From an uncultured Candidatus Saccharibacteria bacterium (GTDB lineage Bacteria; Patescibacteriota; WWE3; UBA101185; 2-01-FULL-41-18), in contig CAZWQF010000004.1 of NCBI GenBank assembly GCA_964636285.1, forward strand, positions 67,666 through 131,665: a stretch of 64,000 nt of DNA, given 5' to 3'. Position numbers and translations under genes: made by a program. The notes beneath the pieces were generated by a model. The model ran no database searches, was not told the DNA's origin, and saw only the letters and a list, made by a program, of their open reading frames with translations. Of the stretch, positions 35,143 through 55,452 are shown piece by piece; the first letter of the stretch is position 1; each line of letters starts with the position of its first letter.

Positions 35143-36147
35143 CTACTTCTTGGTGAGGCTTTTGTTGTACAGCTCAAGGTTATCAAGAGCTATTGCAATA
35201 CCTTTTACAACACACAAAAGTGGGCTATCAGCAACGTGCGCTGGTACAGATGTGGCCTGAGAAATAAAGGAGTCCAGATTCCTGAGCTGGCTAGTTCCCC
35301 CGCTAAGTACAAAACCCTTATCCAAAATATCAGACGACAACTCAGGGGGTGTCTGTTCCAAAACCGACCTAATTGCAGACACTATCTGAGACAAGGGGCT
35401 CTGAATTGCTTGGCTGATTTCAGTGGATGTAACAGTAATAGTTTTGGGTAAACCGGAGATAAAATCCCGCCCCCTAACCTCTAGTGTCTCTTCTTTAGCC
35501 AAAGGATAGGCACTTCCTATCGTTTTTTTCACGTCCTCAGCGGTCTTATCGCCTACCAGCAGTCCGTGCTTTCGCCTGATATGTTGGCTTATAGCCTCAT
35601 CTATCTTGTTTCCAGCCACCCTAATACTTCCGTAAGCCACCAAACCATATAGCGAGATAACGGCTATTTCGCTTGTCCCACCTCCAATATTTACAATCAT
35701 ATTGCCCGAAGGCTCTGAAATAGGAAGCCCCGTCCCAATCGCTGCAGCAAGAGGCTCAGGAATCAAATAGGCACTTTTTGCTCCAGCAGAATAAGCCGCA
35801 TCAAGCACAGCCCTAGCCTCAACTGAGGTAACCCCAGCAGGCACGGAAACCATCACATCAGGCCTAAAGAGCCTAGATCCCCCTATCGATTTGTTAATGA
35901 AATACCTAAGCATTGCCTCAGTTACGGCATAATCTGCAATAACACCATCCCTTAAAGGTCTACAGGCCGTAATGCCCTCAGGGGTTTTTCCAAGCATATC
36001 CCTAGCATCGTTACCCACGGCCACAACTCTCCCGTCGTCATCTGAAACAGCCACAACTGTAGGCTCATTCAGAACGATGCCCCTTCCAAGAACATACACC
36101 AAAGAGTTTGCGGTGCCTAAATCTATTGCAATTCGTTTTCCAAACAT
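35143..36147 (-). CDS. mreB: Rod-shape determining actin homolog MreB
   Basis: IAIDLGTANSLVYV N-terminus and actin-fold motifs throughout, 334 aa. Confidence 0.9.
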   Translation of the reverse strand: MFGKRIAIDLGTANSLVYVLGRGIVLNEPTVVAVSDDDGRVVAVGNDARDMLGKTPEGITACRPLRDGVIADYAVTEAMLRYFINKSIGGSRLFRPDVMVSVPAGVTSVEARAVLDAAYSAGAKSAYLIPEPLAAAIGTGLPISEPSGNMIVNIGGGTSEIAVISLYGLVAYGSIRVAGNKIDEAISQHIRRKHGLLVGDKTAEDVKKTIGSAYPLAKEETLEVRGRDFISGLPKTITVTSTEISQAIQSPLSQIVSAIRSVLEQTPPELSSDILDKGFVLSGGTSQLRNLDSFISQATSVPAHVADSPLLCVVKGIAIALDNLELYNKSLTKK

Positions 36148-37588: not shown

Positions 37589-38260
37589 TTATTGTACTTT
37601 TATAAGTCTTGAGGTAACTACAAGCCTGTTAAATGTAGTTCCCGGAGGGTCACATGTCTGCAATGTTAATGTTGGCTCAAGAACGGTTCTAGTTAACGAA
37701 TAAGTATTCCACCCACTTACAACTTCTTTACCAAGAACTTCGTAAATATAATCCTTGTTCTGATAAAAAAGGTGGACTTGATCGCCTTTATCAAGCTTCC
37801 TTAATAAATTAAAAACAGCCGCGTATTTTGAGAACCTAAAAAACCCAAGTGACGAATGGGCAAAGATGTACACGTTTCCCTTTTCGCCTGGCAAAGCAGT
37901 TCCTACTGCGTGCGCAACACCGTTATCAAGTGACTTCATGTACTCATTTTCATCTGTCACAGAAACATTTTTAACAACTGGTGCGCTAACTCCAATCTTT
38001 TCAATCGCAATTGAAAAATCTGAATTAACAGGCTGAAGTGGCAAAGGACCGCTCTTTAAATACTGAGAAAACACACTTACATTGTCAGGTTTTTGAACGG
38101 TTTTTGCGGTGAGAGTGTAGGTCATTTTCCTAAGCTTCATGATCTGGTACCACACTTCCCCGCCAATGATTGGTAGGTAGGTATAACCCAAAATCACAAA
38201 CCCTCCAAGAATGAGGGCATTTGCAACGAGCCTAGCAACAAAGAGTTTTATTTTTCCCAT
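37589..38260 (-). CDS. Sortase family transpeptidase
   Basis: N-terminal TM anchor, conserved His (YIFAHS) and catalytic TLQTC motif, 223 aa. Confidence 0.8.
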   Translation of the reverse strand: MGKIKLFVARLVANALILGGFVILGYTYLPIIGGEVWYQIMKLRKMTYTLTAKTVQKPDNVSVFSQYLKSGPLPLQPVNSDFSIAIEKIGVSAPVVKNVSVTDENEYMKSLDNGVAHAVGTALPGEKGNVYIFAHSSLGFFRFSKYAAVFNLLRKLDKGDQVHLFYQNKDYIYEVLGKEVVSGWNTYSLTRTVLEPTLTLQTCDPPGTTFNRLVVTSRLIKVQ

Positions 38261-38266
38261 AAAGTT

Positions 38267-38342
38267 TGGTCGGAGTGTCCGGACTTGAACCGGAAACCTC
38301 TGCTTCCCGAAAGCAGCGCGCTACCAATTGCGCTACACCCCG
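38267..38342 (-). tRNA. tRNA-Pro (anticodon CGG), CCA encoded
   Basis: Reverse complement folds as a 76-nt cloverleaf with a 7-bp acceptor stem (CGGGGTG/CACTCCG). D-arm is GCGC-AATTGGTA-GCGC and the anticodon arm is CTGCT-TTCGGGA-AGCAG. T-arm is TCCGG-TTCAAGT-CCGGA, followed by discriminator A and CCA. Confidence 0.85.
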
Positions 38343-38345
38343 AAA

Positions 38346-39401
38346 TTACTTGCGGAATCTTCTTTCAAGTAGCTTAAATATTATCACTAGTGCTACTACA
38401 AGTGCCACTATACTTATTAAAAGCTGTAACGGCGTAGAACTTCCAAAGGTAAAAAAGCTTGCCTTTGTCTCCAAAAACTTGTCTCCAGCCTCCCCATACC
38501 TCAAAACAATTTTGGCATTATACATGCCAGGACTGACAAATGCCCTTAAAACAGTGAGCTTAATATCAAAAGCCCTGATTGTCTCTGGCAAAACAAGAAG
38601 TGACCCTTCGTTTAAAATGCCTTTTGCAACCAGCTCTCCAAACACGTCTCTAACTTCAACACTTCCATGAGGGGTAAGTTGAACATTCCCTGTATTCTTA
38701 AATCTCAAACTATAAGATTCTGGAAAAAGATAATCCCCCATTCGTTTAGGTGTAAAACTTGAGACCTCCCCTTGCTCCATTGCAGACTCAGTACCTCCAC
38801 TCACAAATACAAGCGTTGCAAGAATGCTCTTAACTGACACCGACCCACTTTTTTCACTCTCAAGCGGTATGATTTGCCCCAAGATGCTTGCGTAGTGACC
38901 ACCCTGACTCAGTCTATCCTTTTCAAAAAAAACTTTAACCTTGGCCGTCTCAAGAGGTCCAAGTGTGACCGATTCTCTATCAAACTTAATCCAAGACGCT
39001 AGAGAATACTTGTAGTTCTGAGAATCTTTTTTGTCCAAAAATTTAACCTTCCACCCGTCCTCCATTTCGGTAAAGTCAGATGCGGAAAATCTTATCTCAA
39101 TATTTGAGTTTGTGTTGTTCTCATAAAGAATTTCTGTGCTTGTTGATTTTGAAAGATCTAGTTTAATAATCGAAGGGGTAACGCTCACGCCTTTTTCTGC
39201 TATGGCTGGAGCCGACTTGGCGGACTTTGTAGACTCATCATCACTTAACTTTGTTTGAAGCAAAACTGGAACTTCATCCTCAGCATGCGCAGTAGGGAGC
39301 AACCCCAGAAGCAGAGATCCTGGAAGCGAAGCCCCCAGAAGTACCAAGCCAAGTGCAAGGGCAGCAAAATATGTAAGGGCAAGCGCATTTAGCTTCTTCA
39401 C
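38346..39401 (-). CDS. Secreted surface protein with N-terminal signal peptide and C-terminal TM anchor (paralog A)
   Basis: Signal peptide, then beta-rich ectodomain, then C-terminal TM LLISIVALVVALVIIF plus a basic tail. Architecture resembles DUF916-type Gram-positive surface proteins. Confidence 0.6.
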   Translation of the reverse strand: MKKLNALALTYFAALALGLVLLGASLPGSLLLGLLPTAHAEDEVPVLLQTKLSDDESTKSAKSAPAIAEKGVSVTPSIIKLDLSKSTSTEILYENNTNSNIEIRFSASDFTEMEDGWKVKFLDKKDSQNYKYSLASWIKFDRESVTLGPLETAKVKVFFEKDRLSQGGHYASILGQIIPLESEKSGSVSVKSILATLVFVSGGTESAMEQGEVSSFTPKRMGDYLFPESYSLRFKNTGNVQLTPHGSVEVRDVFGELVAKGILNEGSLLVLPETIRAFDIKLTVLRAFVSPGMYNAKIVLRYGEAGDKFLETKASFFTFGSSTPLQLLISIVALVVALVIIFKLLERRFRK

Positions 39402-39429
39402 AAGTATCCTAAGCTATATTTAAGCTTCA

Positions 39430-40500
39430 CTATTGAACTTTTGAGTTGTTGATTTGTTTTTTGATGTAAGCTCCAAGAACAAACTTAAAGAGTACAAAAC
39501 CAATTATCAAAACTCCTAATATGATGGCGATCAATGTGTAAGGAATTACCCAGAATGTGGTTACTCCTTCTATCAGGACATCTTTATTACCGCCGTCAAA
39601 TACAAGCTTCATTTCTGCGCTGTATTTTCCAAATCTGAACGAGGTCAGCTTGTTTAGGTTAAAAGTAAGCTTTGTAACTGGATTTCCATTTTTATCAAGC
39701 CTTACTTCCCCGTTCTCTGTTACAGGCTCTCTGACAAAGAACCCATCTTTCCAACCTGTTTCAAAGCTTCTCTGTGAGTCAGGAAGAATTCTTCCATTCT
39801 CAGAATTTACTTCAATAATTCCAATGTCTTTTCCACCTGATTCTTTTTTGATGAATATATTTCCTCTTGGTCTGATATGTACATTTCCAGTATTTCTTAG
39901 GGTAGCAACAAACTCTACAGGAAGATACTCATTAATATTGTTTTTTGGTTTAAAATCTAAAAGCTGAGCAGAGGAAACTGCCCCGTCCTTCACTACTGCA
40001 ACAAGAAGCGGAACGCCCACTTCACCTGAAAGTGCTGTCTGACCATCCTGAACATCTGGAGACTGAGTCTTTTTAAAAGTAACCATGTAGTAATAACCAA
40101 ACGCAGCGTCAGAAGGGACATCAAGCGTAAAATTAATATTTCCCCACTCCCCAGGCTTAATGACAATCTCCGGATTTTCAAACTTCACCCAACTAATGTA
40201 TTCATCCAGAGCAGAGGGCTCTAAGACATCAATTTTCTCATCTTTTGAAACAAGCTTTTTTACTGTTGCAGTAAGGGAAAGATCTCCTCTTGTGTTATTT
40301 CTAATTTTTATTTTATCCGAAATAGATACACCAGGTTCAACCCTTAGATCCAAGAATACTGGCGAAATTGTAACATCAACACCCTGCTGAGCTTCCTGAG
40401 CTTGTGTGAAACTTAAGAATCCAAGAAAGAAAACTGTTGAAAGGAGTGCCCCGGTTAATACTTTTTTGACGTTCGCGTTCTTAGTTGTAAGATGCATCAT
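39430..40500 (-). CDS. Secreted surface protein with C-terminal TM anchor (paralog B)
   Basis: Same architecture as 38346..39401 (signal, ectodomain, C-terminal TM VIPYTLIAIILGVLIIGFVLF). Confidence 0.6.
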   Translation of the reverse strand: MMHLTTKNANVKKVLTGALLSTVFFLGFLSFTQAQEAQQGVDVTISPVFLDLRVEPGVSISDKIKIRNNTRGDLSLTATVKKLVSKDEKIDVLEPSALDEYISWVKFENPEIVIKPGEWGNINFTLDVPSDAAFGYYYMVTFKKTQSPDVQDGQTALSGEVGVPLLVAVVKDGAVSSAQLLDFKPKNNINEYLPVEFVATLRNTGNVHIRPRGNIFIKKESGGKDIGIIEVNSENGRILPDSQRSFETGWKDGFFVREPVTENGEVRLDKNGNPVTKLTFNLNKLTSFRFGKYSAEMKLVFDGGNKDVLIEGVTTFWVIPYTLIAIILGVLIIGFVLFKFVLGAYIKKQINNSKVQ

Positions 40501-40544
40501 AAATCATAATTGCGGGGCAGAGCGCTTTAAACCTAATCTAATAA

Positions 40545-41618
40545 TTAAAACCTACCCGCTGCTACTACAGTGAGTACGTCTGTGTAATCTGTGGCTGCTG
40601 CTGTAACGGCTGAGATTGTGGCTCTTGCAGTAAGCGTGAGCACATCACCATCAGTGGTTCCATTTGACCTTGCAATTGGCTGAAAGTTTGTTGAAAGTGT
40701 ACCACCACCTGATGCAGTTCCTACATACTCTGCACCATAACCTGCTGGCTGTGATACAGTACCGTCTCCTGTAGCACTGTCTGTTGTTATATCAACATCA
40801 AGGACGTAGCCATTAGTGCCTGTAGACAAAACTGAAGGTGTGTCATCAACTGAGCCTGTTGTTCCAATTGTTTCACCTGTAATGGTGGAGGAAAGACCAA
40901 CGTTTGCACTTCTAACCCAAGCTATCCAACCATTTTGAGCATTTGTTGCCATTGTTGCTGTTCTGCCGTTTGTAGAGACCACGGCGGATGATGAGAGGTT
41001 GGATGTGAACGTATCGGTACTATTACTCAATGAGAAAGAGAACGTAGATGGTACTGTAGCTGTTATAGTAATCTGATCACTTGACACCGTGGCTGTTGCC
41101 CAAGTTGACTGATCAATTGTTGCCGCTGCACCTGTCCTTGTAGTAATGGTGCCTGTTCTATCTGAACCTGTTGTCCCTGGGTTTGTAAGTGTAGAAGTTC
41201 CAGTAAAATTAAAACAATAGGTTGTACCTACGGAAAGTTCACCACTTGGGAAGGTAACTACATTTCCTGTAACATCTGTAGCAGTTCCAATACCTACCCA
41301 GGCAGAAGTACCTGAAGGTAAGTCTGTAGTAGTAACTGTCCAGTTAGTATCAGTAGGGTTGACTGTAAAAGACGCCGGAAACTCAACTTGAACATCGGCT
41401 TCAGTATTTGCTGTATTAGGCCTTGCACAAACTGTCCCACCTGTGGCCTGTGAGGTATTCATCCTGTCTAGTCTTACATATGCTTCTTGAAAGATTGCGT
41501 GTGAATCATTTGAAAGCCATCCAAAATAATATGATGTAGAAAGCATTAAACCGGCAATAATTGGGGCGACCTTTAGGGAATTTTTTAAAATTTGTTTTTT
41601 GGTGCAGGTATTTCTCAT
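40545..41618 (-). CDS. Secreted Thr/Ser-rich surface protein
   Basis: Signal/TM at the N-terminus, T/S/G-rich beta repeats. C-terminus ...TDYTDVLTVVAAGRF is shared with the next gene. Confidence 0.55.
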   Translation of the reverse strand: MRNTCTKKQILKNSLKVAPIIAGLMLSTSYYFGWLSNDSHAIFQEAYVRLDRMNTSQATGGTVCARPNTANTEADVQVEFPASFTVNPTDTNWTVTTTDLPSGTSAWVGIGTATDVTGNVVTFPSGELSVGTTYCFNFTGTSTLTNPGTTGSDRTGTITTRTGAAATIDQSTWATATVSSDQITITATVPSTFSFSLSNSTDTFTSNLSSSAVVSTNGRTATMATNAQNGWIAWVRSANVGLSSTITGETIGTTGSVDDTPSVLSTGTNGYVLDVDITTDSATGDGTVSQPAGYGAEYVGTASGGGTLSTNFQPIARSNGTTDGDVLTLTARATISAVTAAATDYTDVLTVVAAGRF

Positions 41619-41735
41619 AGTTAAGAACTATCGTAAGCAGTTACAAACTTGTTGTCAACAACTTTGTAATAAATTTTGGAACATAGACAAATATCTATAC
41701 TCAAAAACCTTTAAACACCGCTGTAAAAGCAAATA

Positions 41736-42932
41736 CTAAAAAGCTGACGATGCAACCACCGTGATAACATCTGAATAGTCTGTAGATGCCGGAGTAACAG
41801 CTGTGACTTTTGCTTTTAGCTCAAAACTTGCTCTTCCTGATGTTACAGGCTGGGCGTTTGAGTCAAACATCAATCTTTTTTCCGTGTCTATTGGACCCAC
41901 AATATCCCCTCCCCCGTTGTAGGGTGCCGCTATCTGCATAGGACCTCCAGAGGCTTCATCTACAGAAACGCCTTTTGCACCATAACCTTCAGACAGACTT
42001 GTGAGATTTCCTGTAACAGTTCCAATCGTGTGAGTTGTTGCTTCACTTAATAGTCCAGTGTTTGTTCCATAAACGTACACAGCCCCTCCAGCCATTCCGT
42101 TAGTTGATACATCAACCCAAACCTTATCTGGAGATGTAACAACTGAATCCGCTGTAAGATTTCCTATGTTTAGCTCAAAAGGAGGTTCGTTATCTGTATC
42201 CGTGGGCGCTACATCTATATCAAAGGTAAGCTTTGTAATTGAAGTAACGGCAGAAGCAGTGGGTCCAAATCCCGATTCGGTATCGGCGCCTCTTTTTGCA
42301 GCAACTTTAACTGAATAAGTTGTGCCAGGAAGAAGGTCTATTATGTAAAAACCAGACGCGCCTCCCCAAGTGGTGTAATCCTGCCAATCTTCGACTCCCA
42401 ATGTTGTGTTAACAGTGTTATCACTCTGCACATATCTTGTATCCGAAACAAAGTTATCAGCGGATATTGCTATGGCATATAAAGCATCTGATGGGTTTGC
42501 ACCAGTATTTATAATCAACTGAAGCCTGTTGTAGTTATCATCGGTATTTGTAAGCGAAGGGGCTGGCGGGACATTTGCCATCATTGTGTATAAAAGACCT
42601 CCTCCAATCTTGTAAGCTCCTGATGCGGACTGGCCTGCTTGAAGTTCGCCTGTGACGCCAAGAATTGAGTAGTTTGATGAAGAAACCGAATCCCCTCCCC
42701 CACCAAAGCTGTAATCTTTTAATTCATATGTTGAACTTGAAGGCCCTGCAAATACTGTGTGCAAAAAGCTAGATACGGGCATTCCTGAAAAATAAAATAA
42801 AGTGGAGGTCAGTAAATAAAAAACAACAACCTTTTTTGCCTTTCTTTTAATGGAAGTTTTGGATTTAATAACAGGATTTTTGACTTTAGAGTCAAGTTTG
42901 CTACTTCTGACTTGGTGATTGAGCAGGAACAT
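41736..42932 (-). CDS. Secreted surface protein with FN3-like domain
   Basis: N-terminal TM/signal; FN3-like segment (PGTTYSVKVAAK); C-terminus ...TDYSDVITVVASSAF paralogous to 40545..41618. Confidence 0.55.
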   Translation of the reverse strand: MFLLNHQVRSSKLDSKVKNPVIKSKTSIKRKAKKVVVFYLLTSTLFYFSGMPVSSFLHTVFAGPSSSTYELKDYSFGGGGDSVSSSNYSILGVTGELQAGQSASGAYKIGGGLLYTMMANVPPAPSLTNTDDNYNRLQLIINTGANPSDALYAIAISADNFVSDTRYVQSDNTVNTTLGVEDWQDYTTWGGASGFYIIDLLPGTTYSVKVAAKRGADTESGFGPTASAVTSITKLTFDIDVAPTDTDNEPPFELNIGNLTADSVVTSPDKVWVDVSTNGMAGGAVYVYGTNTGLLSEATTHTIGTVTGNLTSLSEGYGAKGVSVDEASGGPMQIAAPYNGGGDIVGPIDTEKRLMFDSNAQPVTSGRASFELKAKVTAVTPASTDYSDVITVVASSAF

Positions 42933-43140
42933 AAGCCTATATTCTACTACATCTGTAAAGTAGAATTTTTACTACCAATACATAATAGCACATTGAGTTT
43001 TTTAACTCAGAACCCATAAAGATTAAAAGATTTATTGAGTACATTTAACTTATCAAAATTAAAGAAAGTGCGGGCTTTGCCCGCACTTCTTGGTTAACTC
43101 TTTAATAATCTTCATTATTTAATCACGATATTTTGATCAA

Positions 43141-43155
43141 TGCAACTTAGTTGCA
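43141..43155. promoter_or_regulatory. Perfect 15-bp palindrome TGCAACT-t-AGTTGCA overlapping the -35 region of the micro-ORF promoter (candidate operator)
   Basis: Palindrome read directly from the sequence. TTGCAC with a -10-like TATTAT/TATGTT lies downstream, ~60 nt upstream of the ATG at 43215. Confidence 0.45.
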
Positions 43156-43214
43156 CAGATTTATTATTTATGTTATCTTAGCAACACCGGAGACCCAACG
43201 AAAGGAGAAAAACC

Positions 43215-43292
43215 ATGACGCGCATCAATGTGTCGCAGTGCAAGAACTGCGGCGACTCCAGCTGCTCGGGCTGCGGTGGCGGCGATAACTAA
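43215..43292 (+). CDS. 25-aa Cys/Gly/Ser-rich micro-protein MTRINVSQCKNCGDSSCSGCGGGDN (two CxxC pairs)
   Basis: Strong SD AAAGGAG 7 nt upstream of the ATG. Codons are almost uniformly GC3-rich (acg cgc atc gtg tcg cag tgc ggc ...), unlike the flanking AT3-rich genes. A hairpin plus T-run lies downstream (43294-43376). Confidence 0.5.
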   Translation: MTRINVSQCKNCGDSSCSGCGGGDN

Positions 43293-43399
43293 GCCCCACA
43301 AGCGCTGAGCACTGCCTCACCCAACGCTATCTAAAGGATCACGGGATCAACAGGAATAGCATTGGGTGGGGCAAACTTTTTAAAACTAAAATAACTAGT

Positions 43400-44185
43400 A
43401 TGACTTCAAGCACGTTAAATCAAAAAAATATGATTCAGGAGTATGCAAACTATGTAGGTGCTGATGACCTATCGCCAAAAACAGTACAAAAAGGTGTGAA
43501 GATATATAACAAACTTTTAAAAGATCAAAGTCTAGTCAATGCTGGGATAAGCCTAAAAGCAGACTCCAAAATGCAGAACGCAATTCTATCAATTCTTACT
43601 GGAATGTCTGCTGAAACAGGAGCGAACAACGGATCATTTAATAACCTGACTCTTGAGCAAGTAAAACTTTTAAGCCGAGTAATTGAAAAGGAAACTGGGG
43701 GAAATTGTTACATCAACAGAGCTCAAGAAAAACCATACCTGGTCACTTATGCTATTAACACTGCAAGGTTTATAAAAACAATTAAAAGGTATCCAAACTA
43801 TTTTAAATTCTTAAACCAGTTTGCAGATAAGAAGCGGTACAGCCTAAGTCAATTCAGGACCTTTATTGATAGTTCGTCCTCAAAATGGTACGTGCATTTC
43901 AGAGAAAGAAACCAAAATAAGGAATCCTTAATTAGGTATGGCCTTCTGAGCGGCTACCCCCTCCAAGCTACAATTAGCTTTTTTGACATGGAATCCCTGC
44001 CTCACCACGTAGTTCAACTACCATTTGGGGGCTACATTGGATTTAATAAAGAAATTGACAATATTTTTGCAGAGAAGAGGTTTATCATGGTCAAGGATGC
44101 TTACAATTCATTTAGTGACACTTGGAACAAAGACCAAAAAACTCAATTGCATGATCTTCAGCCTCAAAACCGGAATTTACTTTAA
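43400..44185 (+). CDS. Hypothetical protein
   Basis: 261-aa ORF; its 3' end overlaps the convergent Fur-family gene by ~74 nt; no recognisable motif. Confidence 0.4.
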   Translation: MTSSTLNQKNMIQEYANYVGADDLSPKTVQKGVKIYNKLLKDQSLVNAGISLKADSKMQNAILSILTGMSAETGANNGSFNNLTLEQVKLLSRVIEKETGGNCYINRAQEKPYLVTYAINTARFIKTIKRYPNYFKFLNQFADKKRYSLSQFRTFIDSSSSKWYVHFRERNQNKESLIRYGLLSGYPLQATISFFDMESLPHHVVQLPFGGYIGFNKEIDNIFAEKRFIMVKDAYNSFSDTWNKDQKTQLHDLQPQNRNLL

Positions 44186-44576
44186 ACCCCTCTTCAAGGC
44201 CTTTGATACATTTTTCTAACTCCTCAGAATGAAAATCTAAAACACATCCGCAGCTTTTACACACCAAATGATGGTGATGCTCAAGAGAGGCAAGTTCGTA
44301 CATCTTTTTTTCGCCTGATAAAACCACCTCTTTTAGCACCCCTCTGGTCAAAAGCTTATCAATCTCTCTATAAACACTAGTCTTATTAATCTTTTTCCCG
44401 CTTTTGCTTAGTGCTTGCAGAATCTCAGAAGCCGAAACTGGTTTTCCTGAGGCTACAAATTTATATAGCACGTAACACCTTAATGATGAGTGATTTAGAC
44501 TACTTTCATTTAAGATACGCTGGATCTTTTTTTCAATTTGAGCTTTACTCGATTTTTGACTGACTTCATTTTTCAT
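44112..44576 (-). CDS. Fur-family metalloregulator (Fur/Zur/PerR)
   Basis: N-terminal wHTH and C-terminal metal site HHHHLVCKSCGCV...GLCSKCH, typical of Fur proteins. Confidence 0.8.
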   Translation of the reverse strand: MKNEVSQKSSKAQIEKKIQRILNESSLNHSSLRCYVLYKFVASGKPVSASEILQALSKSGKKINKTSVYREIDKLLTRGVLKEVVLSGEKKMYELASLEHHHHLVCKSCGCVLDFHSEELEKCIKGLEEGFKVNSGFEAEDHAIEFFGLCSKCH

Positions 44577-44612
44577 AGCAGCTCAGACTAAAACACAAAA
44601 GAGTACGAACAA

Positions 44613-45602
44613 CTACAACTTAATGTAGTACACTGACCGCCCTTTCCCATGAGGGGCAATAAGGCCCATATCTGCAAGTCTGGCAAGGTCTCTTGATGCA
44701 GTTATCTGTGAAACATTAAATTTTGACTGAACCATTCTATTTGTAACCGAAAGCCCAGGATCCTCAAAAAGCTTAAGAACTTTCTTTTGCCTCTCGTTTA
44801 AATCCCAAAACTCACCACCAGCACTTGAAATAGTCTCATCTTTGGCAATGTTTCTTAATGCCTTCTCTAGGCTCAAAGTCATGGAGTGTATAAAAAATTC
44901 AAGCCATTCGTTTAAGTTTCCACTTTTGAGCGCACTTTGTATCCCACCGGGCAAAATTGACGGGTTTGAAAGGAATTCTTCAATAACAAGAAGTCTTCTG
45001 ACATCGTAACCCTCTTTGTACAAGAAAATGTACGTTAGCAATAGGTTTATTCTGTTGCTAAGTTGACCGAATGGAGCCATGTTACCAAGGTAAATGTAAG
45101 ATACAGCAGATTTAACAACTGGATGGTCGTTGCCTGATTGAAGATACTTCAAAAGCCTCTCCAAGGACTTCTCAAAAATATCGTATTTAACAAAATCTTT
45201 CTTCTGATCTTTTGGAAGTAAGCTATTAAGCCTCTCAAACATCTGAAGGACGGTGGCTACAGTTACCTCGTTTTTGGATGCTTTCCAATCTAAAAAGATG
45301 TCAAAAAGCTCATCTTTGTAGGATTGAAGCAGGAAGACCTGAAGATTTAGTGCCTGATTTGAGCCGTTTTTTGAGTCCGCGCTCATCAAAATCTTTGCCA
45401 GCTTCTCTTTTGACTGGATGACCTGGTTCCCAGCTAAAACAGTGTCCATAGAAAAATACATCCTATCAAGCATAGCCTCCCAAGCTAATGAAGCTTCCAC
45501 TCTTGGGTTGATGTTTTTAGTCAAAATCTGGTTTTTTAGGCTGTCCAGCTCCTTAAGCTGTTCTTTAATCGAAGAATTGATGTTATAGGATAACGTTAAC
45601 AC
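44613..45602 (-). CDS. Fic-fold protein with degenerate active-site motif and C-terminal winged-helix domain
   Basis: HPVVKSAVSYIYLGNMAPFGQLSNRINLLLTYIFLYKEGY aligns with the Fic core HPxxxxAxxH....IHPFxDGNGRxGRLL. The catalytic His is replaced by Ala and the GNGR motif is absent. A C-terminal wHTH (SQITASRDLARLADMGLI) is present. Confidence 0.6.
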   Translation of the reverse strand: MLTLSYNINSSIKEQLKELDSLKNQILTKNINPRVEASLAWEAMLDRMYFSMDTVLAGNQVIQSKEKLAKILMSADSKNGSNQALNLQVFLLQSYKDELFDIFLDWKASKNEVTVATVLQMFERLNSLLPKDQKKDFVKYDIFEKSLERLLKYLQSGNDHPVVKSAVSYIYLGNMAPFGQLSNRINLLLTYIFLYKEGYDVRRLLVIEEFLSNPSILPGGIQSALKSGNLNEWLEFFIHSMTLSLEKALRNIAKDETISSAGGEFWDLNERQKKVLKLFEDPGLSVTNRMVQSKFNVSQITASRDLARLADMGLIAPHGKGRSVYYIKL

Positions 45603-45765: not shown

Positions 45766-48700
45766 ATGAGCCGAACTAAGCCTATTTATAGGCTACCACT
45801 GCCCAGTTTAATTACGAACACTCGTGCCCTTGCAGAAAAACACATAAAAGGGTTGGGGTCTTTTTATACAATTTTAGCCTCTGTAAGTTTATTTTTCCTT
45901 ATAGCTACAACCTTTATAGCTTTTAACACCTCCTTACTCCGTAGTGCTAACGCTGCTACTGGTATAAATAGGCAAATTTCCTTTCAAGGTAAGGTTGTAA
46001 ACATTAACGGCACAAATGTAACTAACGGAAACTATAATTTTGTCTTCCGAATATACACTGTAGATACTGGAGGGTCCCCAATCTGGACAGAAACCAGAAC
46101 AGGAGGAAATCAGCTAACAGTGACTGATGGTATTTTTAGAGCTAGCCTTGGCTCAGTAACATCTCTCCCAGGCTCAATAGACTTTAACACCGACAATATT
46201 TACCTAAGCGTTGAGTTCAACACAACCGATGGCACAAACGAAATGAGTCCTAGAATTCGTTTTTCTGCTGTCCCGTACGCTATCAACGCTGAAAAAGTCT
46301 CAGGACTGACCGTAACAAACACAACAGGTACTTTAACGATTCCAAACTCAAAGACCCTTTCGATTGCAGACGATTTTTCAACGTCTGGTGCATTTGGACT
46401 AACTTTAACCACCACTGCATCTACCAATGTAACCCTACCCACTACAGGGACGCTTTCAACGCTTGCAGGCACTGAGATTCTTACAAATAAATCCATAGGG
46501 TCAACAGGACTAGTATTCTCTGGAGCTACTACGGATATAACTACAGCAACTGATGAGGACTTCACTGTGACCGTCAACGGAACTGGAGATTACATAATAA
46601 ACACGGATGCAGACACCCAGTTTAGACTTGCTGGGCTTGCTAACTGCGACAGCATTGACACTGACGCAAGTGGAAATCTTGCTTGCGGAACTGATGCAGG
46701 AGCCTCATCTTCCCCATTTAATACTGCAGTCGGCGTTATTGATAAGGCAACACTTGGAGATAGATTAAGGCTTAGATACGGAGATGTGGCGGACACACAG
46801 CTTGAGATCGAAAACACATTCCTTGGGTCTGCTCCAACAGCAGATGCAATGGTGATTGACCTTACAGGAGGCGCATCGGGTATTGTAACAAACGGGGTTG
46901 ATGCTCTTTCTATTTCAGCCGAATTTGGAAACGGAACTTCAAGCACAAATTCAGGTTTAAATATAATAATCACGCCTGTTGGATCCCCAACCGGCGACGA
47001 AACATTTTACGGATTGAACATTGCAACTTTAACCGGTACAAGCGCAACAGAAACAGCGGTAAACATTGGTGCGGGCTGGGACACTGGAATTAATTTAAAC
47101 GCTAATACACTTGTAAATATTGGTGATTCAGGTACAGACTTTACCCCAACTGGCGGGCTAACACTGGCCGGAGCTCTTCAGATTAACAACACCATAAATG
47201 CAACCGGAACCGCAACATTTGACGGGACTTTAGACGCCAACGGAATTTTTACTTTAGGCGATGGGGCCGAAATCGGCACAATTGACACTTCCGACTGGGA
47301 TATATCACTTACAGGAGACTTAACAGGTATCAGCTTTGACGCTAACGGAACAGGAAACTCAATCACAAACATTGAGTCAGCGGACATTCTTGATGGTACT
47401 ATTGCTCCTACAGACCTTAATCTAACAACTTCCGACTCCCCTAACGATGAGGACTGTCTAACTTTTGAAAATTCGACTACAGACTTTGAATGGCAAACAT
47501 GCCAGGTTTCCTGGAATAATTTAACAGCCCCTTCCGACAATCTTTCATTATCAATGGCTTCAAATACAACAACTTTTACATGGGGTAATGCAACAGGAGC
47601 CAGCGATATGTTCACTCTAACAGACACTACAAATAATACCGGAACTGGAGCAGTATTTAGTGTTAGCACTGCATCAGGCTCAACTGCTACACCTTTTGAG
47701 GTTTCAGCTCAAGGAAACCCTGCAATAACCGTGAGCAGTAGAGCAAATGTGGGAATTAAAAACATAAATCCACAAGAAGCTCTTGAGGTTGGAAATGACA
47801 CAACTAGAGCTAATATGAAAATATATGGGGACATACTTAAAGATGGATATATTGATTCTACAGGTTTAGCAAATGTTACTGATGTTTTTATTTACGACAC
47901 AACAAGAGACAGCGATGGAGGAGCATGGACTAATGGAACAATAGCTCAAGGACTTTCCTGGTATACCGAGACAAAAGATAATACAAGTACAGCATGCAGT
48001 ATCACAACTGATGATAGATGCGGTAGAAGCGAATTCCCAAAAAAAGCCTTAATTATTTCAACACCAAGCGCCGCATACATCTTTGATGCAAGAGATAATA
48101 CAATGTGGATGAAATTCAACCAGAATTCTGCTGGCTACGCTATTGGGGTGGATACAAACAACAACCCGACCGGAGTATTTGCGCTAAATGGGACCGTTTA
48201 CATTGGAATGAATGGTAGCGCTGCTAGCGGTCTGTACGCTATTAATTTTACAAATGACACTCTACTTAATTACGACTCAGTTGATAGAACCCAGGGAGAT
48301 AAAAACATTGCAAACAGGAATTCTGCAGTGAGCTACGCCACTAATGCTAATACAGCTTTTTCAATCACAGACAACATTGTAAATGATGTACATGGTGCGG
48401 TAATTTTTGGATCCACCACTGCGGGTAGCCCTCTGAATGGAGGTACCTTTATTGCGGCCGCAACAGACTCGGGCACCGCTGTAATAAACTTAACTGCTGG
48501 AAGAGTAATACGGTATGCAGGTACAACAATCACAAATGATATAAATCAGGTTTGGTTAACACGAAGAGGAAGGCTTTACCAGACAAATGAAGCGTTGTTA
48601 CAGGTTGAAAGATTTAATGATATAGAAGCTGATACAGCAAACCAAACTTCAGCAGACGATATTTATGACGAACAGTCAGCAAATGTACCTCACTTGGCAA

Positions 48701-51700
48701 AAACAGCTCCAACTATTTCCACATCTCCGGGCGCACTCTTTGTTCTTGAGAGAGCGTCAGTAGTAGATGATCAAGGAGATGTTCTGTACGTTGGACATTC
48801 GTTGGGATTGTCCGAACTACACCTTGGAAATACAGTATCCGCAACTGCAGTAGGATGGGCAAAATACTACACAATAGACGGTTCTTATCAGTACCTATCC
48901 GGAAACATAAGGGGAGCTTTTGCTATGAATGGGGCTTCAGGAGATATTACGGATCTTTCAATGAGAAATAATGTTCTGGATGTTAAAAACTCCCCTACTT
49001 ATGGTGTTGCAGGAGTACGCGGAAAAGCTATGTCATTTAATGGGACCAACCAGTATGCGTGTTCGGACACCAATAACGACGGCACTTGCGATCTGGATGC
49101 AGATTTCAGCCCTGCGGCTGTTTCATTTCATATTGAAGCCTGGTTCAAACACTCAACGGCTATATCAGGGACTGACGTTCTCATTGACCACACCTATACC
49201 ACAGCGCCAGCATACGCTGGAGGCTATAGAATTTTCATGAATGCATCAGGACAGATGGTATTTGGAATAGACGATGATGCTACTGCGTGGGGAGATGATG
49301 ATGTTGTGACATCTACCCAAACATATAACGATAATCAGTGGCACCACCTTGTTGCTGTAAACACAGACACTGGAATTTGTTTGTACATAGATGGCAAGCT
49401 GGCCGTAGCTTGTGACACCTCTTTACTTGCTACTGCCACACTTACAATTGCAAATGTGGTGCTTGGAGTTGGTGCTGATTGTTCTGTAGGGGCAAACTGC
49501 TCCACAGGCGCAAACTTTTGGACTGGGGAAATTGATGATGTAAACATATCTATGGGCGGATCCACAACATCGGATTCACTAACACAAGCACAAGTCAGGA
49601 AAAAATATCTTGAGGGCAGAGCAGCGCTATCTAGACCCCTGGTACAGGTTACGGATGCAACAACGGCTTCTTCTACAACTATTGGAGATTCAGCAGAAAC
49701 CTGGATTCCAAATCAGCTCTCAGGTTCTGTAGTTGAGATCACTCAAGGCACGGGAGTTGGTCAAACAAGGAGAGTTGTCTCAAATACGGCTACTACACTT
49801 ACAGTCACACCTGCATTTACAACCACACCAGATACCACCTCTGATTTTGAAATCGTACCCGAACAGCTCTACGGAGCAACAAACACAGTTACTTCGATTG
49901 CAGTTCAGGATACTGACGTGCTTGGGTACGGAAAGACACTAATGGTTGGAACAAATAATGGTTCAGACGGTGGAGGTGTGACGATATTTGGTGGACAAGG
50001 CCATGCATATATCACGGATGTTTACCACGCAGATGCAGGAAAAACCGATGATAATGCCGCAACATATTCCGGAACAGACTACGACGATATAACTGCTGTA
50101 GCTGCTAAGTCAGGGGTAAGGGTTGTAGGTAATCTGGCTGGGTTCTGGACAGAAACAGATAACAAAGAATACGAAGCAAACATAGACAGAATTATGAATG
50201 AGATTACAAACATGAAGCAGGAACTTCTGGTTGATGGTATTACGGGTACATCAACAGAGACCGGACTTATGGGAGGAGCGGATCTTGCTGAGTACTACTA
50301 CTCCACCGAGCTACTTGAGGCAGGAGAAGTTGTGGCAATAGATAAAACTTTGAATGCAGGAGTTAAAAGATCCAGCACAGCCTACCAAACTGATGTAATA
50401 GGCATTGTTGCTACGTACCCAGGAATTATTCTTGGCACTAAAACTGATAATTCATTTCCTATCGCTTTATCTGGAAGAGTGCCAGTAAAAGTGAGTATTG
50501 AGAACGGTATAATTTTGGCAGGAGATAGATTAACAGCGTCAAGTGTACCAGGGCATGCTATGAGAACAGATACTGCAGGTAGAGTTATAGGGGTTGCAAT
50601 TGAAGACATGAGCCTTGATTCTCTTAGTGCCTGCGTGGATAACAACGGCCAGCCAATTACAAACTCGCAAGGTGAGGTCAAAAAGTGCGGAACAATAACA
50701 GCTTTTGTAAACCTTTCGGATTACAATAAAAATTCAGACGACACATTACTTAGTAGCTGGTACCAACAGCAAGCTGCAACTGAGCTCTACACAAAACTTT
50801 ACGAATCAGAGAGCGCAAATCAGGAGAGTACAGAATCAGCAACAATTCAAAGCTGTATTGACAACAACTGCACAGATAACGCGCTAGCAAGGCAAAGAAC
50901 AAAAGTTAAAGAGATACTTTCTATACTCAAAAATGCCAGTGAGGCCGGTGAGAAAGAAGGAACCATGTCTGCTCTCACAAAGCTACCTGAACTGCTAGCC
51001 AAAAAAATAACTGCAAGTCAAGAAATTATCACTCCTCTACTCTCTTCGCTTGTTGTGAACTCTGAAGAAGTAAACTCGGTAAAAATTAAGTCTGACTACT
51101 TGGAGGCTGGTTCACTTAAAACAGATTCGATTCAAGCAAATAATAAGGACATTAAGATCAACGTAGCCGAGGATGGAAAGGTGATTCTTTTTGGCACTGA
51201 TTCAAATGGCAAACCAAAAGACATTATCACTTTTGATCAATATGGAAACGCAAGTTTTAACGGCGACATAACCGCTGGAACAATCACCGCCGACAAAATC
51301 AAAGCAAATCAGATAGAAGGCATGGAGATTGTTACGGACAAGCTATCTTCGATCTCCAAAGAGCTCTCAGTGCTCTCAAAACAGTCCTCAGAGAGCGCTT
51401 TTATTAATCCTGAAGATCCTGAGGGAACTCTAATAAAAGGCATCAAGATAGGCGCCCTAGAGGCTCAGACGGCCAAGGTTATAGACATCACTGCTCTTGG
51501 AAAGATGTTCGTTAAAAAATCTTTGACTGTGGATGGACCTGCAACGTTTAAGGCAAATACTTTCTTTGAAAAACTTGCCGTCTTTATTAACAAAGTAATC
51601 TTTAAAAACGAAGTAATTTTTGAACAAGTTCCTACTTTCAACAGCGATACAGCAGGCTTTGCAATTATTAAGGAAGGTGACGATAGAGTAAGAATCAAGT

Positions 51701-52224
51701 TTGAGAAGGAATATAAAGATTTGCCGGTTGTTAACGCCTCTATTGCTTTATATAAGGACGACGATGGCAAAGAGAAAGACCAGGAATTTAAAGATAGACA
51801 GGATAGGGTTTTGGATCACGAATACCCATACATTGTGAGCGAACTTTCAACTGAAGGATTCACAATTATCTTGGGCAAAGAGGCAAAGGAATCAATCAAC
51901 TTTAGCTGGGTGGCATTTGCGGTTAAAGACGCAGTAACAGCAGGCGAAGAAAAAAAGGTCAAAGATCAGGTTGAGAGGCTCTTAAATCCAGACTTTGTGA
52001 AGAAGGCACAGGAGAATGAAGACAAAGAGAATAAAGATGAAAATAAAAACGAAGTAAAAGAAGAAAAGAAAGAGGAGCCTGTAAAAGATGAGCTCAAAAA
52101 TGAGAATTCAGATTCTGGTTCTTCAAGCTCTGTGTTAGGAGCAAGCACAAACTCAAATTTTGTGGAGACTTTGTTTAACACCGGATTATCCGGCGGGAAA
52201 GAAAGCTCAAGTTCGGCAAGGTAA
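45766..52224 (+). CDS. Giant (2152 aa) secreted/anchored surface protein, paralog of the 16-kb gene, with LamG/concanavalin-like lectin domain
   Basis: Short cytoplasmic N-terminus plus TM (FYTILASVSLFFLIATTFIAF), no HTH. Shares the NLNANTLVNIG...DTSDWDISLTGDLT module with the 16-kb gene. LamG-like region ~48980-49460 (MSFNGTNQYA...NQWHHLVAVNTDTGICLYIDGKL). ALSGRVPVKVS module ~50260-50620, then coiled-coil and a K/E-rich tail. Confidence 0.85.
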   Translation: MSRTKPIYRLPLPSLITNTRALAEKHIKGLGSFYTILASVSLFFLIATTFIAFNTSLLRSANAATGINRQISFQGKVVNINGTNVTNGNYNFVFRIYTVDTGGSPIWTETRTGGNQLTVTDGIFRASLGSVTSLPGSIDFNTDNIYLSVEFNTTDGTNEMSPRIRFSAVPYAINAEKVSGLTVTNTTGTLTIPNSKTLSIADDFSTSGAFGLTLTTTASTNVTLPTTGTLSTLAGTEILTNKSIGSTGLVFSGATTDITTATDEDFTVTVNGTGDYIINTDADTQFRLAGLANCDSIDTDASGNLACGTDAGASSSPFNTAVGVIDKATLGDRLRLRYGDVADTQLEIENTFLGSAPTADAMVIDLTGGASGIVTNGVDALSISAEFGNGTSSTNSGLNIIITPVGSPTGDETFYGLNIATLTGTSATETAVNIGAGWDTGINLNANTLVNIGDSGTDFTPTGGLTLAGALQINNTINATGTATFDGTLDANGIFTLGDGAEIGTIDTSDWDISLTGDLTGISFDANGTGNSITNIESADILDGTIAPTDLNLTTSDSPNDEDCLTFENSTTDFEWQTCQVSWNNLTAPSDNLSLSMASNTTTFTWGNATGASDMFTLTDTTNNTGTGAVFSVSTASGSTATPFEVSAQGNPAITVSSRANVGIKNINPQEALEVGNDTTRANMKIYGDILKDGYIDSTGLANVTDVFIYDTTRDSDGGAWTNGTIAQGLSWYTETKDNTSTACSITTDDRCGRSEFPKKALIISTPSAAYIFDARDNTMWMKFNQNSAGYAIGVDTNNNPTGVFALNGTVYIGMNGSAASGLYAINFTNDTLLNYDSVDRTQGDKNIANRNSAVSYATNANTAFSITDNIVNDVHGAVIFGSTTAGSPLNGGTFIAAATDSGTAVINLTAGRVIRYAGTTITNDINQVWLTRRGRLYQTNEALLQVERFNDIEADTANQTSADDIYDEQSANVPHLAKTAPTISTSPGALFVLERASVVDDQGDVLYVGHSLGLSELHLGNTVSATAVGWAKYYTIDGSYQYLSGNIRGAFAMNGASGDITDLSMRNNVLDVKNSPTYGVAGVRGKAMSFNGTNQYACSDTNNDGTCDLDADFSPAAVSFHIEAWFKHSTAISGTDVLIDHTYTTAPAYAGGYRIFMNASGQMVFGIDDDATAWGDDDVVTSTQTYNDNQWHHLVAVNTDTGICLYIDGKLAVACDTSLLATATLTIANVVLGVGADCSVGANCSTGANFWTGEIDDVNISMGGSTTSDSLTQAQVRKKYLEGRAALSRPLVQVTDATTASSTTIGDSAETWIPNQLSGSVVEITQGTGVGQTRRVVSNTATTLTVTPAFTTTPDTTSDFEIVPEQLYGATNTVTSIAVQDTDVLGYGKTLMVGTNNGSDGGGVTIFGGQGHAYITDVYHADAGKTDDNAATYSGTDYDDITAVAAKSGVRVVGNLAGFWTETDNKEYEANIDRIMNEITNMKQELLVDGITGTSTETGLMGGADLAEYYYSTELLEAGEVVAIDKTLNAGVKRSSTAYQTDVIGIVATYPGIILGTKTDNSFPIALSGRVPVKVSIENGIILAGDRLTASSVPGHAMRTDTAGRVIGVAIEDMSLDSLSACVDNNGQPITNSQGEVKKCGTITAFVNLSDYNKNSDDTLLSSWYQQQAATELYTKLYESESANQESTESATIQSCIDNNCTDNALARQRTKVKEILSILKNASEAGEKEGTMSALTKLPELLAKKITASQEIITPLLSSLVVNSEEVNSVKIKSDYLEAGSLKTDSIQANNKDIKINVAEDGKVILFGTDSNGKPKDIITFDQYGNASFNGDITAGTITADKIKANQIEGMEIVTDKLSSISKELSVLSKQSSESAFINPEDPEGTLIKGIKIGALEAQTAKVIDITALGKMFVKKSLTVDGPATFKANTFFEKLAVFINKVIFKNEVIFEQVPTFNSDTAGFAIIKEGDDRVRIKFEKEYKDLPVVNASIALYKDDDGKEKDQEFKDRQDRVLDHEYPYIVSELSTEGFTIILGKEAKESINFSWVAFAVKDAVTAGEEKKVKDQVERLLNPDFVKKAQENEDKENKDENKNEVKEEKKEEPVKDELKNENSDSGSSSSVLGASTNSNFVETLFNTGLSGGKESSSSAR

Positions 52225-52263
52225 AACTTAATATGCCCTGAAAAGGGCTCCAAAATTTAATCT

Positions 52264-52300
52264 AAGCGGCGGGTTCATCTACAACCTAACCCCGCCGCTT
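52264..52300. other. Strong 10-bp-stem hairpin after the giant gene
   Basis: AAGCGGCGGG-(17 nt)-CCCGCCGCTT, with an A-run on the plus side and no canonical U-run on either strand. Confidence 0.5.
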
Positions 52301-52559
52301 AAAAAATGTACAGACTTGGGAGTTTTGAAGTGTAAGGTTAAAAATTAAATTTGATATAAGTAAATTCCGCGGGTGCAAGTCAAAGTGTTTTAAACGCAAA
52401 ACAGCCCGGCCTCCACACTCATCATTCGTAACTTTCGTCACAAAATCAAAGTTTTGGATTCCGGGCTGTCACTAGCACCTAGGCTAGATTTTTGTCATTT
52501 TTACTCAGTCACTTGGGCGGAAGTGTGAGCTCGGATGACTTCCGATTTAGAGCAAGAGA

Positions 52560-53081
52560 TCAGGCGCGGGCGGATGTACGCATGGTACGATTCCGCTTGT
52601 TGACCGACTTCTTGCTTTTGCCGCCGCCCATCTGTGGACCACCCTGACCCCCGGTGCCCTTGGCTTTCTGGCACGCGGCGGCGCGGTTCTGCTGGCGGGC
52701 CTTGCGAGCGGCCTCTTTCTGGTTCCGAACACGATTCGCCTCGGCTTTATCCTGTTGCGAAGCGCCCTGCGTAGCGTATTGGACAAACGCCTTGGTGGCA
52801 AGTTCAACAGCGGTCTTGCGGTTGACGGCGGCGTTGCGATAGCCGATCCACTCTTCATTGGCAGCCTCTCGCGCCGCGTGGTAGCTAGCACAGGACTTGT
52901 CGCAGAAGCGGTGAACCACCTCATGAGAACCCTCTTGGACGGGGGGGAAAGACCACCCAGACAAGGAGGTACGCATGAGCACCGCAGGCGCAGCGCCCGA
53001 TCGGCTCGGGCTCCAGTTCCTTGATCGTAACCTTGCTCAAGCTCGACAAAGAAACTTCCGATGCAAAGTAGTGGGACATGA
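52560..53081 (-). pseudogene. Island ORF a: possibly frameshifted gene (basic, Gly-rich C-terminal tail) split at a G7/C7 homopolymer
   Basis: A 52-aa ORF with SD AAGGAGG (start ~53081, MSHYFASEV...) ends just upstream of the 140-aa frame 52560..52982 (…KTAVELATKAFVQYAT…KSKKSVNKRNRTMRTSARA). The frames change at the run GGGGGGG 52938-52944. Either a true pseudogene or a sequencing error. Confidence 0.35.
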
Positions 53082-53328
53082 CTGCCTCCTTGCCTTTTTA
53101 GGGCATGAAAAAAGAACGAAAATTGAGCCACTTCTAACAACTTCTTTGTTATAACAAAGCCGTCAAAAGCGGCCCAACTTCTCTTTTTGGGAGGACTGCC
53201 CTCCCCCATTCGGTTAATAGTATTGTTGAGATTTGAAAAGCGAATAGATACAAAAAAGGGGCGTCTGCCAGCGAATGCTACGGCATCTTTATTAGAAAAT
53301 TAAAACTAAATTGAAAACGCCTCCGAGT

Positions 53329-54197: not shown

Positions 54198-54198
54198 G

Positions 54199-55158: not shown

Positions 55159-55384
55159 TTTTCACCTCCGTGTGGGCTGGCTAGCCCATGAAAATCCCCT
55201 ACCCGCTGGCTTTCGTTTTGGGTTACGCCTCTTTAATTACTTGAGGGAAAAACCTGCTAAAAATTCTATTACAGACTTTTCCCCCAAGTAATTATTGAGA
55301 ATATATCGAACTGCGTATCTTGCCACATAGGTTAATCTTTATTAATTTGTTGAAGATAACCTACAGAGAGAGTTGCTAAATTAG

Positions 55385-55448: not shown

Positions 55449-55452
55449 TTGT

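Follow-up and report, generated by a model that had tools for sequence, protein, structure and literature searches.

Introduction

Known members of Zur regulons are importers, COG0523 GTPases and zinc-free paralogues. Fur-family boxes classically have a 7-1-7 layout, as in the Zur box of Bacillus subtilis, TCGTAATnATTACGA. For small peptides and small RNAs (sRNAs) controlled by Zur, the first characterisation dates from 2025-2026 and concerns a single pathogen. The ZinS/ZinP locus (rsaX20) of Staphylococcus aureus gives rise to a 274-nt dual-function sRNA that is repressed solely by Zur; its promoter carries a Zur box, the transcript combines an AGGAGG Shine-Dalgarno (SD) sequence, a 34-aa small open reading frame (ORF) and a Rho-independent terminator, and its 3' part represses mRNAs of zinc enzymes (PMC13586535, PMC13556194). 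The encoded peptide, ZinP, has 34 aa and is amphipathic and highly basic (isoelectric point 12.2), with no Cys-rich character described (PMC13586535). Here we analyse a stretch of 64,000 nt (64 kb) from an uncultured Candidatus Saccharibacteria bacterium (contig CAZWQF010000004.1; the whole stretch is referred to as the window), in which a putative micro-gene for a 25-aa peptide with four cysteines stands behind a Zur-type operator. In its predicted way of working, ZinS/ZinP is the closest known system.

The C(P)XCG proteins of the archaeon Haloferax volcanii are about 40-70 aa long, and the length of their linker allows a pair of hairpins of the zinc-ribbon or rubredoxin type. They are defined as proteins of less than 70 aa with two C(P)XCG motifs and are thought to be able to bind a zinc ion (PMC10716476, PMC6562870); for HVO_0758, zinc binding has been characterised and the protein was studied by nuclear magnetic resonance (PMC10716476). 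A Cys-rich zinc protein under the control of Zur is known from Synechococcus WH8102, where the promoter of bmtA carries Zur boxes and is activated by Zn-Zur at high zinc; BmtA is a metallothionein of the SmtA family with a multi-zinc cluster (PMC9337993). The 7-1-7 operators of the Fur family and Zur regulons have been reviewed (PMC6103462, PMC8000910).

With moderate confidence, we read the locus as a unit of about 210 nt that is repressed by a Zur-like regulator and codes for a Cys4 peptide, most likely Zn(II)-binding in starvation. A Zur-controlled micro-gene or sRNA locus is already known in kind; the present one has a Cys4 product unrelated to ZinP and lies in a genome of the candidate phyla radiation (CPR) type. 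Like ZinS/ZinP, it has a Zur-type box in the core promoter, a short transcript (predicted at ~210 nt, compared with 274 nt), an SD sequence of the AGGAG type, a tiny ORF near the 5' end and a Rho-independent terminator at the 3' end, and induction under zinc limitation would be expected. Its peptide, in contrast, has 25 aa, is about neutral and contains four Cys, and by description it is not a homologue of ZinP; phylum and operator sequence also differ, and the regulatory 3' part is described for ZinS.

With classical Zur operators the locus shares a 15-bp 7-1-7 repeat over the core promoter and a Fur-family repressor encoded nearby, whereas its half-site, yGCAAsT, differs from the AT-rich boxes known for Fur, Zur and PerR in model bacteria (TCGTAAT or TGATAAT) and the product is a Cys-rich micro-ORF instead of a transporter, a COG0523 GTPase or a Cys-free ribosomal paralogue. 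The peptide falls within the definition of the Haloferax C(P)XCG proteins, being likewise very small and having two CxxCG knuckles that could share one Zn(II). Since the entire peptide comprises 25 aa and the linker only four residues (GDSS, between C12 and C17), its fold would differ from the hairpin pair of the archaeal proteins; it is, moreover, bacterial (CPR-like) and predicted to be metal-regulated. A Cys-rich product behind a Zur box is also the feature in common with BmtA, unlike which the box has the geometry of repression and the peptide has no more than four Cys and no Pfam metallothionein match.

Results and Discussion

Operator, promoter and regulator

A sequence-only reading of the region had reported a 25-aa ORF with two CxxC pairs, a strong SD sequence, a perfect 15-bp palindrome and a Fur-family regulator about 0.8 kb away, all of which we recovered (Table 1). 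The regulator gene is convergent to the micro-gene and lies 0.82 kb from the micro-ORF stop codon. For comparison we used the loci of six independent homologues of this regulator (L044, L045, L048, L171, L172 and L174). Just upstream of each of the six regulator genes there is a 15-bp 7-1-7 palindrome, positioned 2-3 nt past a TTGAC(A/T) -35 hexamer and directly before the -10 hexamer. The window site, TTGATC-AA-TGCAACTTAGTTGCA-CAGATT, aligns column by column with the six promoters of the relatives, the invariant columns of the seven-promoter alignment being TTGA, GCAA, T and TTGC, and CAGATT is found in the same register as TATAAT, TACAAT and TAAGAT in the relatives. The palindrome had been thought to overlap the -35 region; according to this alignment it instead fills the spacer between TTGATC and CAGATT.

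A position weight matrix (PWM) was built from the autoregulatory sites of the six relatives only, leaving out the window site. It assigned 19.3 bits to the window site compared with 10.3 bits for the runner-up in the window, and 19.3 bits were attained in one of 200 shuffled windows. The core GCAAC-N3-GTTGC is present in one copy in the window and absent from 296 kb of unrelated loci; the four relatives that have this core, namely three of the lineages (one copy in each of L044-L050) and L171, contain it exactly once. The box is the sole one of its type in the window and faces the micro-ORF, with its TTGA -35 on the plus strand. The window thus encodes a Fur-family regulator and contains a match to the operator of the regulator's clade, which overlaps the predicted core promoter of the micro-gene. 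Judged by these sequence features, the neighbouring Fur-family regulator very probably binds the palindrome, and the micro-gene would very probably belong to its regulon.

The window regulator contains an HHHH motif and two CxxC pairs. Its recognition helix, (I/V)NKTSVYR(E/Q)L, as well as the HHHH and CxxC ligands are common to the operator-carrying homologues, even though it has no close relatives (best homologues 36-44% identical). Downstream of the regulator gene there are ZnuA/ABC/ABC-3 importers (znuABC) in L048 and L172 and a ZIP transporter in L174 (homologues P0033-P0042, one of which is annotated at NCBI as Candidatus Roizmanbacteria). L044 has a nicotianamine-synthase-like (NAS) gene with two CobW/COG0523 genes at this place, and L045 a GTPase gene. 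Because homologues head znuABC, ZIP or NAS+CobW operons, we regard the clade as Zur-like, and the same neighbourhoods, although those of distant homologues, point to zinc as the most likely signal. Metal-responsive control, as suggested by the sequence-only reading, is now argued for much more strongly, with the same operator in the same register before homologues that have ZnuABC, ZIP or NAS+CobW neighbours. As for further targets of the palindrome, the window offers the single box, whereas the boxes of the relatives head metal-gene operons. In a literature search that was not exhaustive, we found no paper on Zur in Patescibacteria and no description of this box.

Unlike the genes of its relatives, the regulator gene of the window has no operator box of its own. 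It comes after a gene for a 329-aa winged-helix protein (44577-45602; C-terminally ArsR/SmtB-like or DeoR-like). At its other side, the zur-like gene overlaps the 3' end of a convergent 261-aa ORF by 74 nt (44112-44185), and read-through from the box promoter would run antisense to zur. In the relatives, the zur start codon is found ~12 nt past the operator, just after the -10 hexamer (L044 4823-4838, L048 4988-5003, L171 4126-4141); because of this short distance, their zur mRNAs are probably leaderless. One of the Fur-family ORFs, called with 171 aa (L045 5001-5516, P0004), is over-extended at its 5' end, such that operator and -10 hexamer (5061-5081) are inside the ORF; its true start is probably the ATG at ~5088.

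Table 1. Features of the micro-gene locus in the window and operators of the six regulator homologues
Feature	Position or locus	Strand	Basis or sequence
Strong GC hairpin, 11 bp, loop 3, followed by T-run; minus-strand terminator	43065..43089	-	terminator scan
-35-like TTGATC, 2 nt upstream of the box	43133..43138	+	aligns with TTGA(C) invariant in the zur promoters of six relatives; inferred
Zur-type operator, perfect 7-1-7 palindrome TGCAACTtAGTTGCA (TGCAACTTAGTTGCA as 15-bp window site)	43141..43155	.	PWM, alignment
-10-like CAGATT, 17-nt spacer; predicted start ~43168	43156..43161	+	register of the relatives' hexamers; inferred
Mini-ORF ATG-TTA-TCT-TAG at predicted 5' end	43170..43181	+	promoter alignment
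Shine-Dalgarno AGGAG, 7 nt before micro-ORF ATG	43203..43207	+	sequence
Micro-ORF, 25 aa, MTRINVSQCKNCGDSSCSGCGGGDN, TAA stop	43215..43292	+	translation, codon usage, shuffle test
Intrinsic-terminator-like element: hairpin with 18-bp arms (43313-43330/43356-43373) and inner stem, then TTTTT (43377-43381)	43313..43381	+	fold
Orphan 261-aa ORF, no SD, directly downstream of micro-gene	43400..44185	+	context
Fur-family (Zur-like) regulator, 154 aa, presumed box binder	44112..44576	-	Pfam FUR E=5e-21
Relative's operator	L044		CGCAACTAGGTTGCG
Relative's operator	L045		CGCAACTTGGTTGCG
Relative's operator	L048		CGCAACTGGGTTGCG
Relative's operator	L171		CGCAACTCGGTTGCG
Relative's operator	L172		TGCAAGTGACTTGCA
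Relative's operator	L174		TGCAAATCGTTTGCA

The micro-ORF and its coding signals

The peptide contains two CxxCG motifs (CKNCG and CSGCG, with C9/C12 and C17/C20); it has four Cys and no His, and a net charge of ~0 (R3, K10, D14, D24). The micro-ORF ATG is the only in-frame start after an upstream TAG at 43179-43181, and among 30 ORF starts surveyed in the window, its AGGAG is the sole strong SD sequence. Host genes are otherwise almost devoid of SD sequences (e.g. the starts at 3402, 35143-36147 and 44576), the micro-ORF being the exception.

As the sequence-only reading had stated, the codons of the micro-ORF differ sharply from those of its AT3-rich neighbours. Following the ATG, 21 of 24 codons end in G or C, while 8.5 would be expected from host usage (exact tail P=1.2e-7), for which 24 window ORFs with 15,885 codons served as reference (GC content at third positions, GC3, 0.33; range 0.27-0.43). 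At the first, second and third codon positions of the micro-ORF the GC content is 0.42, 0.63 and 0.88 (GC3 0.875), a period-3 pattern that coincides with the frame set by SD and ATG. When the GC-rich tract was shuffled 20,000 times with dinucleotides preserved, an ATG-to-stop ORF with two CxxC pairs appeared in 0.16% of the shuffles, and one with two CxxCG motifs in none. The SD sequence, the period-3 GC pattern and the double CxxCG make a coding function plausible, and we consider it fairly likely that the micro-ORF is translated.

Transcript and terminators

The GC-rich tract around the micro-ORF extends from 43176 to 43379 (204 nt) and peaks at 0.62, with a window mean of 0.42 (standard deviation 0.055; 120-nt windows); it is the sharpest GC peak once the regions 32.6-33.1 kb and 52.5-55.9 kb are set aside. 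The GC spike reported before is thus present, but it is not confined to the ORF, since the tract also includes part of the 5' leader, the 3' untranslated region (UTR; 0.70) and the terminator hairpin. The predicted unit consists of a promoter with Zur-type box, a leader of ~47 nt, the SD sequence, the 25-aa Cys4 ORF and a long hairpin with T-run, which together would yield a stand-alone transcript of ~210 nt, from ~43168 to the hairpin and T-run. The fold z-score of the whole region is -4.5, owed to the hairpin at 43313-43373. Without the 3' arm of the terminator, the micro-gene transcript (178 nt) folds no better than shuffles (z -1.0), so the composition of the micro-ORF is not explained by RNA structure. 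Rfam covariance models gave no family for 43100-43400 on either strand, be it at E<=1 or at gathering score.

The mini-ORF at the predicted 5' end shares its alignment column with the zur start codon of the relatives and could be either what is left of an ancestral zur start or a start-stop element. On the other side of the promoter, the minus-strand hairpin is predicted to act as terminator or insulator between the micro-gene promoter and a divergent 398-aa surface-protein gene. No gene is found immediately upstream of this hairpin on the same strand, and minus-strand transcripts from zur would run antisense across the 261-aa ORF and the micro-ORF before reaching it. Weak Rfam matches ('L20_leader/sroD') nearby merely reflect the terminator hairpin and were rejected. 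RNA-gene scans found only one tRNA in the whole window.

Searches for relatives of the peptide

No homologue of the peptide turned up in genomes, viral contigs or metagenomes, the last of which the sequence-only reading had proposed to search for similar micro-ORFs. An exhaustive HMMER search with a 30-aa translation in 1.84 billion cluster representatives gave no match, bearing in mind that such short ORFs are seldom called and that a query of 25 residues has low power. The peptide matched no family in Pfam or NCBIfam at E values up to 10, including precursors of ribosomally synthesised and post-translationally modified peptides (RiPPs) and metallothioneins, and neither tblastn nor blastn with the micro-ORF tract found anything significant in plasmids. 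The pattern ATG-N21-CxxCG-N3-CxGCG matched 42 times in 185,579 GTDB species genomes, almost always in chance frames of GC-rich DNA, and twice, both by chance, in viral contigs, in which a strict degenerate peptide pattern had no match. A metagenome scan for the operator plus four Cys (loose pattern) yielded at least 120 loci, none of which, among those listed, has an SD-led small CxxCG ORF. In the 75 kb around the zur genes of the six relatives we found no Cys-rich micro-ORF. The only other contig that carries the micro-gene locus is 100% identical and therefore provides no variation to analyse. On present data the micro-gene thus appears as a single instance without relatives.

Two kinds of candidates were rejected. 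In the PDB, the peptide matched a FYVE domain and the zinc knuckle of bL32 only weakly (E >= 0.35). A protein from a metagenome-assembled genome of an uncultured Candidatus Saccharibacteria (L013), consisting of MENIDKKQCAVCGSGDCKGCGQGG... plus a transmembrane helix, resembles the peptide superficially at its N-terminus but belongs to a family that conserves the transmembrane segment and not the Cys tail. This family (L013 5489-5824, minus strand; P0062-P0067) comprises six clusters of 92-119 aa, in which a variable Cys/His-rich N-terminal tail precedes a conserved transmembrane segment, HHLVKVILKLIIIIIIFWCG, and a Gly/Pro-rich tail. It has no match in Pfam or NCBIfam and may represent a metal-binding membrane micro-protein.

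Proposed mechanism

According to our proposal, the metal-loaded Fur-family regulator would bind the 7-1-7 box in the promoter spacer and block RNA polymerase; a box in the spacer is the geometry of all six autoregulated promoters of the relatives. Under metal shortage, most likely of zinc, the unit would be transcribed from ~43168 as far as the terminator hairpin with its T-run (43313-43381). The two CxxCG knuckles and the GDSS linker would suit one tetrahedral Cys4 metal site. For a zinc ribbon the peptide is too short; it would most likely bind Zn(II) inside the zinc-starved cell, acting as a scavenger, buffer or hand-over ligand. In addition, the GC-rich RNA may act in trans as a regulatory RNA, as in S. 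aureus ZinS/ZinP.

Several points weigh against this proposal. As a homologue of the peptide is absent from every search, there is no comparison by which purifying selection on its amino acids could be assessed, and the host lineage is poorly sampled, the nearest Fur homologue being 44% identical. Metal specificity is deduced solely from the neighbours of distant homologues; the window regulator stays under the cut-offs of the NCBIfam equivalog models for Fur, PerR and Zur alike, and PF01297/ABC-3 importers can carry Mn as well. The -10 hexamer CAGATT is weak (3/6 match). Some micro-ORF codons are rare in the host (CGC, ACG and TCG account for 1%, 8% and 9% of synonyms, respectively), and efficient translation is not assured because codon usage is opposite to that of the host, which hardly uses SD sequences. 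The extension of the GC-rich tract into the UTRs fits the expectation for a functional RNA. Finally, the production of a zinc-binding peptide in zinc shortage is, to our knowledge, not an established strategy of Zur regulons.

Alternative explanations

The locus could instead specify a purely non-coding, Zur-repressed sRNA with a zinc-sparing role, comparable to the regulatory part of ZinS or to the Fur-controlled RyhB and IsrR, and the ORF would then be incidental. We consider this rather doubtful, yet it has points in its favour: the unit is short and stand-alone with promoter and terminator, its GC-rich tract begins just past the predicted start and spans leader, ORF, 3' UTR and terminator, stop-poor sequence of this kind contains overlapping ORFs in several frames, and neither the rarity of SD sequences in host genes nor the missing protein homologue speaks for coding. 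What it leaves unaccounted for is the pair of CxxCG motifs that none of the 20,000 shuffles reproduced, and the strong period-3 GC pattern, whose frame is precisely that of SD and ATG; the RNA body, moreover, folds like shuffles and belongs to no Rfam family, and a duplex scan against 29 start regions of the window, in itself uninformative, gave no convincing target pairing. The rare codons of the micro-ORF would also fit a leader peptide with attenuator, where translation of the Cys-rich stretch decides on formation of the 43313-43373 hairpin and thus on read-through into the 261-aa gene (43400-44185). This gene starts 27 nt past the end of the terminator and has itself neither SD nor clear promoter, and 12 nt within the ORF (43230-43241) could pair with the 5' foot of the terminator (43309-43320; 83% complementary). 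The alternative helix is, however, short and imperfect, and the minimum-energy fold does not favour it; no single regulatory codon is repeated in tandem, and the 261-aa gene is an orphan, which deprives the scheme of its amino-acid logic. A weak promoter-like TTGGGT-N18-TAAAAT could also provide this gene with a leaderless transcript of its own. Overall, we rate attenuation as improbable.

Still less probable, and in our view very much so, is the possibility raised by the sequence-only reading that the peptide is a RiPP precursor, whose Cys/Ser/Gly core would be modified by an unrecognised enzyme, possibly the 261-aa protein, with the hairpin setting the ratio of precursor to enzyme. The core is indeed rich in Cys, Ser and Gly, the adjacent 261-aa protein is encoded in the same direction and has no detectable family, and a layout of precursor, hairpin and gene is common in RiPP operons. 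The eight residues ahead of the first Cys are, however, too few for a typical leader peptide, no precursor model of Pfam or NCBIfam matches, and control by a metal regulator suggests metal physiology. Consistent with the earlier remark that modification enzymes are missing nearby, a search for Pfam domains over 27 window ORFs found no radical SAM, YcaO, Lan or DUF692 domain, and the ORFs tested showed no YcaO, radical SAM, LanB/C/M, MNIO or other maturase, transporter or protease domain. A foreign origin had been proposed as well. Its non-functional variant, a high-GC fragment that landed behind a former zur promoter, would explain why both GC3 (0.875) and the strong SD are alien to the host, and why a promoter type that drives zur in the relatives stands here 1 kb from an inverted zur gene without box, with a three-codon ATG...TAG where the zur start of the relatives sits. 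We nevertheless judge it unlikely, since neutral DNA should not keep such a composition in a genome of 40% GC, and the locus is a tidy unit of SD, single start, intact ORF, stop and, 20 nt further on, terminator. Plasmids, phages, genomes and metagenomes yielded no donor-like sequence. Foreign origin as such is disfavoured by the inclusion of UTRs in the tract and by the operator of the regulator's own clade in the promoter, and the supposed tie to an island at 52-56 kb is not supported, as the GC-rich tract shares no sequence with that region and has no other copy in the window.

Returning to the Zur-like-repressed unit with a Cys4 peptide, we tentatively suggest, as a possibility that we think rather less likely to hold in full, that it represents a Zur-regulon effector of a new kind: a Cys4 'minimal zinc knuckle' made only in zinc starvation by a reduced-genome (CPR-type) bacterium, which may serve as zinc scavenger, as hand-over ligand or as a buffer that sharpens the Zur switch, whose RNA is possibly regulatory, and whose promoter would define, for these bacteria, a Zur box new to the literature, yGCAAsT-N-AsTTGCr. 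If real, zinc-starvation micro-genes would also occur in ultra-small uncultivated bacteria, with a quite different, thiol-rich product, and one would have to ask why a cell should produce a zinc ligand when zinc is scarce. Aligned, the operators provide a Zur-box model that can be used for a group of Fur-family regulators, one of them annotated as Candidatus Roizmanbacteria. Regulation by this group is essentially unstudied, and with such a model its zinc regulons could be predicted from metagenomes.

Neighbouring genes and the wider window

The 261-aa ORF directly downstream of the micro-gene matched only itself among 5.8 billion clusters and gave no match in Pfam, NCBIfam or the PDB; AlphaFold2 (AF2) modelled it poorly (pLDDT 48). 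Its transcription may result from terminator read-through or start at a promoter of its own, and we treat the ORF as context, as it is not demonstrably part of the unit. Elsewhere, the window encodes NusG, L1, MreB, a sortase and giant surface proteins.

The region 52200-56400, ~4 kb between the genes for a 2152-aa and a 905-aa protein, is ORF-poor and has a mean GC content of 0.48-0.50, rising to 0.70, with peaks at 52529-52825, 52747-53067 and 55663-55838. An rRNA operon was considered here and rejected. The region has no Rfam match; its three best ORFs have no Pfam match, and no DNA similarity to phages or plasmids was seen. Two ORFs of the window are of giant size, encoding 5417 aa (10165-26418, minus strand) and 2152 aa (45766-52224, plus strand), the translation of the latter being rich in Thr, Gly and Asn. 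They flank a cluster of secreted or sortase-associated proteins at 37589-42932. A 356-aa neighbour has just weak matches to Fn3-like and WxL-interacting domains.

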